From: an uncultured Verrucomicrobiae bacterium
GTDB taxonomy: Bacteria > Chlamydiota > Chlamydiia > Chlamydiales > Rhabdochlamydiaceae
DNA: 64,000 bases
Direction: 5' to 3'
Assembly (NCBI GenBank): GCA_963813135.1
Contig: CAWEXY010000008.1
Span: 45,942 to 109,941 of the forward strand
Position numbers and translations under genes: made by a program. Below the pieces are notes generated by a model. That model was not told where the DNA came from, ran no database searches, and saw only the letters and a program-made list of their open reading frames with translations. Shown piece by piece: positions 4,821 to 7,197 of this stretch. The number at the start of each line of letters is the position of its first letter. The first letter of the stretch is position 1.

Positions 4821-5825
4821 ATGGTTCAAAAAAAAATTGTTCTTACAGGGGACCGCCCAACCGGGCCTCTTCACCTCGGCCACTATGTCGGCTCGCTCAA
4901 AAATCGGGTGGCGCTCCAAGAGACGCATACCCAATATGTCATGCTCGCCGATGCGCAGGCCCTCACCGACAATGCCGATAATCCCCAAAAAGTCCGAGAA
5001 AACGTCCTTGAAGTAGCGCTCGATTATCTTGCCATCGGCATCGATCCGGCAAAAACCACCATTTTCATTCAGTCGCTGATTCCCCAGATCCCTGAGCTCA
5101 CGATGTACTATCTCAATCTAGTGACGTGGAACCGCCTCAAACACAACCCTACCGTCAAGCAAGAGATCCAGCAAAAAGGATACGGCGAAAGCGTCCCCGC
5201 AGGTTTTATGGTCTATCCGGTCAGCCAAGCGGCGGACATCACCGTCGTCAAAGCAGAAATCGTTCCTGTCGGCGAAGATCAGCTGCCCATGATCGAACAG
5301 ACGAATGAAATCGTCCGGCATTTCAATCGCACCTACAAAACCGATGTCCTCGTCGAAGCGGCCGCGCTCATTCCTAAGTTTGCACGCCTTACGGGCATCG
5401 ATGGAAAAGCTAAAATGAGCAAGTCTCTGGGCAATGCGATATTCCTCTCAGATCCCGCCGATGCCGTCGCCAAAAAAGTGAAGGGCATGTACACCGATCC
5501 CACACATCTTCGCGTTGAAGATCCCGGCAAGGTCGAAGGCAATCCTGTCTTTGCCTACCTTGATGCGTTCGATGCTGATATCGCCAAGGTCGAAGAGCTC
5601 AAAGCCCATTATCAACGCGGCGGGCTGGGCGATTCTGTCGTAAAAAAACATCTCGTTGATGTCCTGCAAAACTTCCTCGATCCTATTCGTAAAAGACGCG
5701 CCGAGTTTGCCGCTGACAAAGGCGAAGTGATGCGCATTCTGCAAAAAGGCACCGAGCGCACGCTCCATGTCGCCGAGCAAACGCTTGCCGATGTGCGCCG
5801 CGCTATGTGCCTCGATTATTTTTAA
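4821..5825 (+). CDS. trpS: Tryptophan--tRNA ligase
   Basis: [24 protein letters not shown] and KMSKS motifs. Confidence 0.97.
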
Positions 5826-5918
5826 CAACCTCTTTACCAAAAATCAGTTGCTCAGCTAAAGTGTTTCCATTCCTACAAAATATTGTATGGAAGATGACTA
5901 ATCACAAATAGGAGAAAT

Positions 5919-6227
5919 ATGAATATACATGGTGACTTTGTAAGAGAGTGTGTAAAATTAGCGCCGATGATTGCTACAGCGACATTAGCGATTGCTTCTT
6001 GGGAAGCTGGAACCAAAACTGTAAACGCTGTTTGGAATAAAACAATGGCATGGTACAGAGGTGATGCATATAACGCCGCCCGCAAAAATGATGAATTTAA
6101 TACTTTAGGCTACGGAGAAAAAATCGAGCGTGTTGGTAGGCTTTTCCCTCGTGCTGAATGGAGCTTGTCAACGTGTGCATCGATGTTTCTTCTTTCTATT
6201 GTCGCACTTTCAGTGGCTAAGAAATAA
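5919..6227 (+). CDS. Small hypothetical membrane protein (cargo 1)
   Basis: 102-aa ORF, AGGAG RBS, two hydrophobic segments, followed by a terminator. Confidence 0.8.
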   Translation: MNIHGDFVRECVKLAPMIATATLAIASWEAGTKTVNAVWNKTMAWYRGDAYNAARKNDEFNTLGYGEKIERVGRLFPRAEWSLSTCASMFLLSIVALSVAKK

Positions 6228-6259
6228 CTAAGCAAATTGGCTTTTTTAGCCAGGTTTTT

Positions 6260-6289
6260 AACCCCTGTCGTTTCTGGCGGGGGTTTTTC
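6260..6289 (+). terminator. Rho-independent terminator
   Basis: acccctgtc-gtttct-ggcgggggt hairpin with a T-tract. Confidence 0.75.
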
Positions 6290-6477
6290 ATTTCCAGATT
6301 TTACGCCAAGCTTCGTATTCAGAGGAGCGCATGCTCCATGTCGTCGAGCAAATGCTTGTTGATGTGCCTCGATTATTTTTAACAACCTCTTTACCAAAAA
6401 TTAGTTGCTCGGCTAGAGTGTTTCCATTCCTACAAAATATTGTATGGAAAATGACTAATCTCAAATAGGAGAAATAT

Positions 6478-6972
6478 ATGACAAACGCTCTAAGCGGACT
6501 TGCTTCCAACATTGCCCCTCGCGCGATTAATACGATCCTCGCAGGGTGTTGCCGTTTCCCTTTTTTACTTGCCACAATGGGTGGAACAACAATCGTTGCC
6601 TTCATGGTGCTCAAAGGATTGCGGGCCTCATGGCAAGGTATTAATTCATATGCTACGGGGTTTGACTATGCCAAAGCAGCAGCAGAGGCTGAAAAAAATA
6701 AAGTACATAAAAACCCGGAAGAAATGTCTGTTTTGGATGATGTAGCAGCAATTATGAATCCGTTTACCGATCCTAAATGGACTAATCTAAGGTTGGCAAA
6801 GGTTGCCGCTGTTGCCTTATCAGTTGGCATTGTTGGCGGGACGACGGTTTCTGTTTTATTTGGTCAACCTCCAGCTATTTATAACGATGTCCTTCGATTT
6901 ATGGGTCCTATTCGCCTTTCTTGTGATTTATGGCCAGGGTTTCAGGCTGTAAAAGACTATTTCCACCTTTAA
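6478..6972 (+). CDS. Hypothetical membrane protein (cargo 2), distant paralog of 5919..6227
   Basis: 164-aa ORF, same AGGAG RBS, two hydrophobic segments, shares VALSV and spaced C/AT/K/W/G-x-x-Y residues. Confidence 0.85.
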   Translation: MTNALSGLASNIAPRAINTILAGCCRFPFLLATMGGTTIVAFMVLKGLRASWQGINSYATGFDYAKAAAEAEKNKVHKNPEEMSVLDDVAAIMNPFTDPKWTNLRLAKVAAVALSVGIVGGTTVSVLFGQPPAIYNDVLRFMGPIRLSCDLWPGFQAVKDYFHL

Positions 6973-6982
6973 TTTTCTCATA

Positions 6983-7012
6983 AACCCCTGTCGTTTCTGG
7001 CGGGGGTTTTTC
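6983..7012 (+). terminator. Rho-independent terminator, same sequence as the 6260 copy
   Basis: Same hairpin and T-tract. Confidence 0.75.
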
Positions 7013-7197
7013 ATTTCCAGATTTTGCACCAAGTTTCATATTCAGAGAGGCGCAAGCGATAGCGATAGCGAGCTTCTTTACATGGCGCAATATACCTATA
7101 AAATCGCAGCAAGACGCGAAAAAAACATTTTCGTTTCATTCAATAATTCCTTTTCGTAACATCCTTCCGTAGTAGAGAAGCAATATGGATGGCTGTA

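Follow-up and report, generated by a model that had tools for sequence, protein, structure and literature searches.

Cargo turnover within constant flanks behind trpS in Rhabdochlamydiaceae, and its possible routes

Integron cassette arrays are tandem units of unrelated open reading frames (ORFs) with repeated non-coding sequence between them. The sources for the minimal mobile element (MME) of Neisseria are reportedly Saunders and Snyder 2002 and Snyder 2007, and the scheme of an anchor plus microhomology for large inserts is said to stem from de Vries and Wackernagel. As defined in PMC3082526, the MME combines different whole-gene cargoes at the same site with a second conserved flanking gene. 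Transfer in chlamydiae has been inferred from gene trees (PMC9816063), and elevated inferred rates are reported for Rhabdochlamydiaceae (PMC9816063, section 11). The present study deals with a 64,000-nt stretch of DNA from an uncultured member of this family (contig CAWEXY010000008.1; the window), in which two dissimilar small genes, w1 and w2, stand within nearly identical flanks behind the tryptophanyl-tRNA synthetase gene trpS. A literature search without subscription papers and supplements returned nothing on this locus or on the w2 family.

Constant flanks and changing cargo behind trpS

A unit made up of trpS 3' end, leader, ORF, terminator and tail occurs twice in succession (Table 1), and block alignments bore out the earlier note, which had described this anatomy and its near-identical flanks from the letters of the window. 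Overall the flanks of the two units are 93-94% identical. The upstream blocks (5754-5920 versus 6325-6477) agree at 85.6% over 167 columns, a 14-nt gap included, and at 96% in their 116-nt ungapped core; from stop codon to ATG the leaders show 94 identities, five mismatches and two gaps. The downstream blocks (6260-6334 versus 6983-7057) are 90.7% identical, with 61/65 nt the same and no difference at all over 43 nt, counted from the start of the terminator stem. No further copy of either block is present in the 1.83-Mb assembly of the window's own genome (G000), which is 82% complete. The borders of the cargo lie at the start codon and 10-32 nt past the stop codon, and the GC content at third codon positions (GC3) is 0.33 in w1 versus 0.58 in trpS.

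Within these flanks the two ORFs have no obvious DNA identity, again in agreement with the earlier observation. BLASTP gave no alignment of w1 and w2 (E 2.6), their protein similarity is at the level of shuffled sequences (z -0.25 local, 1.33 global), their local DNA score is reached by 94% of codon shuffles, and their proportion of synonymous differences (pS) is 0.74. On these comparisons, w1 and w2 look back on histories that are far older than those of the flanks.

Different whole-gene cargoes occupy the site in three genomes: w1 and w2 in the window, g1a and g1b in G001, which is the sole further representative of the genus among the genomes used, and A and B in L090, the single locus returned by a pattern scan of metagenome contigs (trpS 94% identical in amino acids [aa], synonymous divergence [dS] 0.58 to the window). 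In G001 both ORFs have diverged paralogous leaders and terminators; both ORFs are homologues of w1, with global z values of 5.9 and 5.4, and neither is homologous to w2. The order in L090 is trpS, divergent leader, ORF A, small element, terminator, a displaced trpS tail of ~31 nt, leader, ORF B and terminator; the leader of B is 85-86% identical to those of the window, and its terminator is homologous to the window's. The w2 gene is absent from the trpS locus of G001 and L090, and its family profile found no member in G001. The downstream neighbour varies as well: the cargo is followed in G000 by an SBP_bac_5 gene, in G001 by a uvrA-like one and in L090 by an ORF of 262 aa (the names uvrA, map, rdgB, lysE and MORN are those of genes that we take to be such from their sequence).

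The proteins w1 and B are 34% identical at a pS of 0.71, and their identical residues use the same codon in 9/30 cases compared with 214/304 in trpS (Fisher p < 0.0001). This synonymous saturation relative to trpS argues for replacement of the cargo and not for fast evolution in place. The 51% aa identity of g1a and B, although G001 is the more distant genome, is reached by w1 with no partner, and B is likely the vertical partner of g1a. The comparison suggests that the site contained g1a/B in the common ancestor and now holds w1 and w2 in the window. Cargo turnover within constant flanks, the central proposal of the earlier note, is thereby upheld, with w1, w2 and B all embedded in a homologous leader and terminator; by these sequence measures, the flanks follow the host and the cargo does not.

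The displaced trpS tail of the window carries a 14-nt deletion between two ATGTG motifs and five C>T changes; four of these fall on second codon positions and are non-synonymous, and the fifth is a synonymous change at a third position. The residues of the functional trpS are ancestral, as judged by L090, and the changes in the tail represent decay after the stacking event, which had been recognized before. The motif GCGCA, at which the joint had been placed, is indeed common to all three sites (5756, 6327 and 7050), but at the joint the preceding two bases also match trpS, so that the actual join lies 2 nt upstream (6324/6325) within an imperfect similarity of ~10 nt. In L090 the joint is ~40 nt away from that of the window. 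Because of this distance, and because the two window leaders resemble each other more than they do those of L090, the stackings in the window and in L090 are independent: trpS tails were displaced in two separate events, each with a joint of its own.

Contigs from public runs of two studies match the joint region of the window without a single difference, and the joint is therefore not an assembly artefact. One of them (X3 #17; 6211-6361) bridges the joint with >31 nt on each side, and the other (X2 #8; 6317-6651) links the decayed tail to w2. A chimera of two strains with different alleles, for which one could adduce that the assembly is incomplete and that no listed record spans the whole locus, is hardly credible in view of these matches and of a tail whose non-synonymous decay and deletion are unlike any live trpS allele.

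Table 1. Features of the trpS 3' locus in window coordinates
Feature	Position	Strand	Remarks
trpS (tryptophanyl-tRNA synthetase), upstream anchor	4824..5825	+	PF00579 E 5e-57; matched in 39/41 relative genomes
Functional trpS 3' end, repeated at 6325	5754..5825	+	
Leader 1	5826..5918	+	inferred -35 5833-5838, -10 5857-5862; 5' hairpin ~5870-5891; AGGAG 5910-5914
Cargo w1, 102 aa	5919..6227	+	small family, seen only behind trpS in the genus: w1, g1a, g1b, A, B
Extra small hairpin and T run, behind w1 only	6237..6253	+	
Terminator 1 (stem 6260-6285) and tail	6260..6324	+	stem homologous to terminator behind B in L090
Displaced, decaying trpS 3' end	6325..6382	+	joint to tail at 6324/6325
Leader 2	6383..6477	+	93% identical to leader 1, 86% to leader of B in L090
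Cargo w2, 164 aa	6478..6972	+	helical family of the order; conserved R26, R46, G129, Y135, N136
Terminator 2 (stem 6982-7009) and tail	6982..7054	+	GCGCA at 7050-7054 marks the end of the repeated unit

The promoter of leader 1 was inferred from the alignment with the G001 and L090 leaders; a consensus promoter scan did not list the site. All four leaders that were folded have the 5' hairpin (z -1.0 to -2.8). The additional hairpin downstream of w1 is possibly a remnant of an older terminator. A survey of repeated trpS ends, covering 0.4-1.9 kb downstream in the 29/31 loci with enough DNA, found them in the window, L090 and G022, plus one 19-nt match at chance level. The G022 locus (L007) is an ordinary tandem duplication behind trpS, with a repeated leader and alike cargoes, and across the family the junction after trpS holds differing genes. 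In G001 the convergent uvrA-like gene ends at the stop codon of g1b, and its final codons encode the g1b terminator hairpin (L031:7993; G001:C4). The small element between ORF A and its terminator (L090:2760-2950) is non-coding, ~190 nt long and bounded by 20-nt terminal inverted repeats, and its ends have short matches at four places in G000. Further repeats of the window comprise a dispersed palindrome of ~60-80 nt at gene ends (4697-4765, 15566-15600, 52005-52058 and 54308-54392; elsewhere in the genome at C8:34109, C11:34665 and C20:3006) as well as 108-nt-period coding repeats and a 12-nt tandem repeat (44227-44809 and 41181-41240).

The two cargo families

The w1 family is small. It was found in 2/129 genomes of the bacterial family with its profile and, in addition, in L090, w1 belongs to no Pfam family, and its structural model is poor, with a predicted local distance difference test score (pLDDT) of 52. 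Searches with single cargo proteins returned only the proteins themselves, a three-sequence profile returned only its members, and a contig scan with B alone gave one partial match of 24 residues; the leader pattern had no match in viral contigs.

A single-sequence search with w2 likewise found no close homologue. The genome search detected w2 homologues in 5/128 other genomes of the family, and the family profile collected 92 representatives, with matches in 27/400 genomes of the order. One w2 homologue, apparently the protein of G073 (length and score agree), carries the label Rhabdochlamydiaceae at its source; as G073 falls into the family group of G000, this would give the family name for the genome of the window, which its gene content and relatives assign to the chlamydiae. 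The profile has no Pfam match, and NCBIfam offered only two uninformative single-member rows; w2 thus belongs to an uncatalogued helical family of the order. At 20 other loci its genes stand in about 13 neighbourhoods (grouped by eye); a Shine-Dalgarno-like motif precedes 21/24 members and a hairpin of -10 kcal/mol or better follows 24/24, both counted without a control set, which suggests that the members are mostly free-standing units. The w2 model is confident (pLDDT 85.7) and all-helical, with helices at 12-59 and 103-128. Fold searches returned generic helical hairpins only (Foldseek best E 3.0; VIA best Z 6.1, none of at least 8), and the ESM Atlas only matches below 0.8; such generic matches of a predicted model indicate neither a new fold nor a function. 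In the family tree, which was built without the rows after P0052 and without duplicates, w2 is found on a long, unplaced branch.

Several observations on this family stand apart from the trpS locus. Short ORFs lie directly upstream of w2-family genes in genus g9 (L055:2119-2496, L057:2060-2479 and L041:2202-2621), and the one in L057 matches the family profile (E 8e-5), so that diverged tandem paralogues recur in the w2 family. Fused two-domain proteins are encoded at L049:979-1962 (327 aa) and L079:847-2076 (409 aa). A free-standing 140-aa ORF of G000 (C21:108335-108757) has an AGGAG leader, a terminator-like end and the general style of w2 and w1, with no significant match to the profile.

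A remote homology of w1 and w2 is possible, though not established. The comparison of both family profiles with hhalign gave a probability of 39.6% (P 0.0003) over 34 columns in the first helix of the w2 family, and 4% with three sequences; the spaced residues that the earlier note had listed as shared fall in the same register. In shuffle tests the values were 2.2% for w1, 0.4% for g1a and 15% for g1b. The w2-family profile gives w1 a score of 3.5 bits, which dozens of the 6765 genome ORFs exceed, and the C-terminal YN motif of the family is absent from w1. On these sequence comparisons w1 may be a truncated offshoot of the w2 family. We also observed that w2 differs from its own family at positions where it matches w1 (T33, K46, W52, Y64, W101 and S115); chance, shared ancestry or partial exchange may lie behind these matches.

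Possible routes to the stacked alleles

We put at about even the chances that the locus arose by ORF swapping in the manner of an MME combined with anchored illegitimate insertion. The trpS 3' end, the strong leader and the terminator would together form a one-gene expression slot, whose ORF would be replaced by other small helical proteins via recombination with related chlamydial DNA. Double crossovers in the leader or trpS and in the terminator would exchange entire ORFs, and later recombination with conspecific DNA would trim the foreign flank to the limit of homology, so that the borders come to lie at the start codon and close to the stop codon. In a further step a donor fragment of trpS, leader, w1, terminator and tail would recombine in trpS and rejoin the recipient through imperfect microhomology within the trpS 3' end, ahead of the resident unit of leader and w2. 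This stacking would leave the decaying trpS tail between two slot alleles.

Similar traces exist elsewhere in G000. Of 96 nearby repeat pairs 18 were selected for inspection, and six of these 18 are displaced gene pieces that bracket unrelated ORFs (C11:140529/141942, C11:223775/226588, C15:47586/49294, C21:108093/108788, C16:11732/12562 and C7:18355/21706). The displaced copy is the 3' end of the gene (its 3' half at C7) and lies 0.7-3.4 kb downstream. Three such loci were compared with G001; at two of them the bracketed ORFs are missing from G001, where a different neighbour directly follows the anchor. For a fourth anchor, neither G001 nor G009 gave a match. Since such pieces also occur at other anchors, the footprint is not specific to trpS, and displaced gene tails are possibly a genome-wide footprint of anchored insertion. 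The C21 locus was considered as a second slot and rejected: it has a displaced tail (a 141-nt repeat of 98% identity), but the repeat ends 63-100 nt before the start codons. Families of ComEC and DprA are present in the window genome.

A number of points weigh against swapping and anchored insertion. Competence genes do not show that transformation occurs, and no donor was found. The single synonymous change in the tail means that a donor would have been nearly identical to the recipient, and a duplication within the chromosome fits this equally well. Another cargo in these flanks was seen in none of 8/10 listed runs, which yielded short pieces of low depth, and neither a w1-only nor a w2-only allele was seen in the 8 runs. 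The slot is known from three genomes only. Between g1a and B the same codon is used in 25/56 cases, versus 167/284 in trpS (p 0.04); small slot genes drift faster, so that the contrast between w1 and B is partly inflated. Finally, the order of A and B in L090 is swapped relative to g1a and g1b of G001 if A pairs with g1b (38% aa identity, 17/36 identical codons; the w1-family tree does not resolve this), and provided that this pairing holds, the swap is the footprint of a duplication with reciprocal loss.

The earlier note had alternatively proposed that one gene was duplicated together with its flanks and that the ORFs then diverged under very strong diversifying selection. In its favour, the weak remote similarity of w1 and w2 lies in one register, and residues common to both are rare in the w2 family (T33 in 0/81, K46 in 2/81 and W52 in 5/80). 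With flanks that differ by 5-9%, however, most synonymous sites should still match, and in reality the DNA of the two ORFs is as dissimilar as shuffled sequences. Moreover, w1 is clearly nearer to g1a, g1b, A and B, and w2 to proteins at other loci, than the two are to each other, and in a comparison of all 82 family members against w1, w2 ranks 61st and 36th under two matrices. Synonymous saturation has largely refuted this explanation, and we regard it as very improbable.

A more serious competitor, although less probable than swapping with anchored insertion, is a duplication with reciprocal deletions in one chromosome. An older array of w1 and w2, each with a paralogous leader and terminator of its own, would have been duplicated from the trpS 3' end onwards, and each copy would have lost one gene, w2 from terminator to terminator and w1 from leader to leader, which yields the same flanks without any transfer. 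In its favour are the two-gene array of G001, with paralogous leaders and terminators at the site, and the swapped order in L090, where a trpS tail lies between the genes and the first leader starts at the trpS stop codon and resembles the g1b leader. Two details of the window fit as well, namely the extra hairpin that w1 has kept ahead of the shared terminator and an extra AT at the end of leader 2 that recurs in the first leader of L090, and the two cargo families may be remote relatives. The scheme nevertheless requires a previous w2 beside w1, and neither relative has w2 there. In its simple form it makes one flank native to w2, whereas each of the shared flanks has its homologue in a flank of B in L090. 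It also leaves the synonymous saturation between w1 and B unexplained and needs at least three events, versus fewer for anchored insertion. Both routes do without a special enzyme, and both could have acted.

Such an enzyme would be demanded by a dedicated system that exchanges ORFs precisely, or inserts circular units at the 3' end of trpS, in a site-specific or RNA-templated manner. The sharp borders of the cargo, the twofold displacement of trpS tails and the location of both joints in GCGC-containing sequence would suit it. Joints ~40 nt apart are incompatible with a fixed att site, the 3' borders are not identical, and displaced tails occur at unrelated anchors too. With 82% of the genome at hand, the best match to the integron integrase model TIGR02249 reached 83 bits versus a cut-off of 265, the only tyrosine recombinase (PF00589) is encoded on contig C9 and not on C8, and a search for reverse transcriptases found none. 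Within 5700-7250, Rfam returned no more than two matches, both of them sub-threshold. We consider such a system improbable. Hardly better are the prospects, in our view, of a dedicated expression slot of environmental chlamydiae at the trpS 3' end, with start-to-stop ORF exchange by an undescribed mechanism and repeated stacking, which would serve phase- or antigenic-type variation of an uncatalogued family of secreted host-interface proteins.

Function of the cargo and comparison with described systems

The cargo proteins are predicted from their sequences to be abundant, monocistronic, partly hydrophobic and helical. A role at the host or membrane interface is likely, although this is the weakest step of our explanation. 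The w2 family, with its confident model and 92 representatives, consists of free-standing, strongly expressed-looking genes with fast turnover, which makes them candidates for host-interface proteins. The suggestion of an immunity-like function found no backing, as no toxin gene or toxin tip adjoins the cargo in the window (trpS, the SBP_bac_5 gene and an AAA_14/DUF4143 gene) or in G001 (the uvrA-like gene).

The parallel suggestion of Inc-like proteins fared no better. Inc proteins have two transmembrane helices joined by a loop of under 30 residues (PMC3048545). With a hydropathy window as the sole measure (KD19 of at least 1.6), two hydrophobic segments were detected in 29/82 members of the w2 family, one in 43 and none in 10, and w1 has one; the paired segments are 41-75 residues apart, and in 0/82 members are they closer than 41. 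In the first 20 residues of the w2 family the share of S/T/N/P is 0.29 versus 0.22 and that of D/E 0.017 versus 0.092 in 943 ORFs of the genome; by composition alone, such acid-poor N-termini would be compatible with secretion. The cargo resembles Inc proteins in being small, fast-evolving and lineage-restricted, with two hydrophobic helices and an acid-poor N-terminus, and differs in the spacing of the segments and in a first helix with conserved E and R.

Among the systems with repeated units, integron arrays share the tandem of unrelated ORFs with repeated non-coding sequence in between. They differ in that no integrase above the cut-off was found here, that a promoter and a terminator are predicted for each unit separately, and that the repeats consist of a gene tail and a leader. 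On the tests that were run, the locus is neither an integron nor an Inc array nor a toxin-immunity array. Tandem duplication with random loss, described mostly for mitochondria, would explain why the genes of L090 are swapped relative to G001 and have a decayed remnant between them; on its own it leaves unaccounted for that both flanks of w2 are native to the other family.

The mechanisms that we invoke are already known processes. One of them is homology-facilitated illegitimate recombination (HFIR; PMC6382021). In its scheme of anchor plus microhomology, as at the locus, one side is anchored by homology and the 3' end of the anchor is left displaced: in G000 and L090 the intact trpS lies upstream and its displaced 3' end downstream. 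The imperfect, short GC-rich similarity at the other joint may be a further parallel. HFIR was shown in transformable free-living bacteria, whereas here it is deduced from anatomy in an uncultured intracellular lineage without a visible donor. If this explanation is true, anchored DNA uptake would leave displaced gene tails as a trace that can be counted in chlamydial genomes, and the locus offers a base-resolution view of gene swapping and stacking without mobile-element enzymes in an obligate intracellular lineage.

With its HFIR-type stacking the locus would otherwise work like an MME, in which the same conserved site likewise holds different whole genes in related genomes and no mobility enzyme was found. 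A second conserved flanking gene is missing at the trpS site, where the downstream genes differ in G000, G001 and L090, and polymorphism within the species was not seen; for these reasons we do not file the slot as an MME. Its downstream anchor is the cargo's own terminator in place of a second conserved gene, and its alleles are stacked with a displaced trpS tail between them. The exchanged unit is the bare ORF inside a fixed leader and terminator, and hence smaller than a classical MME.

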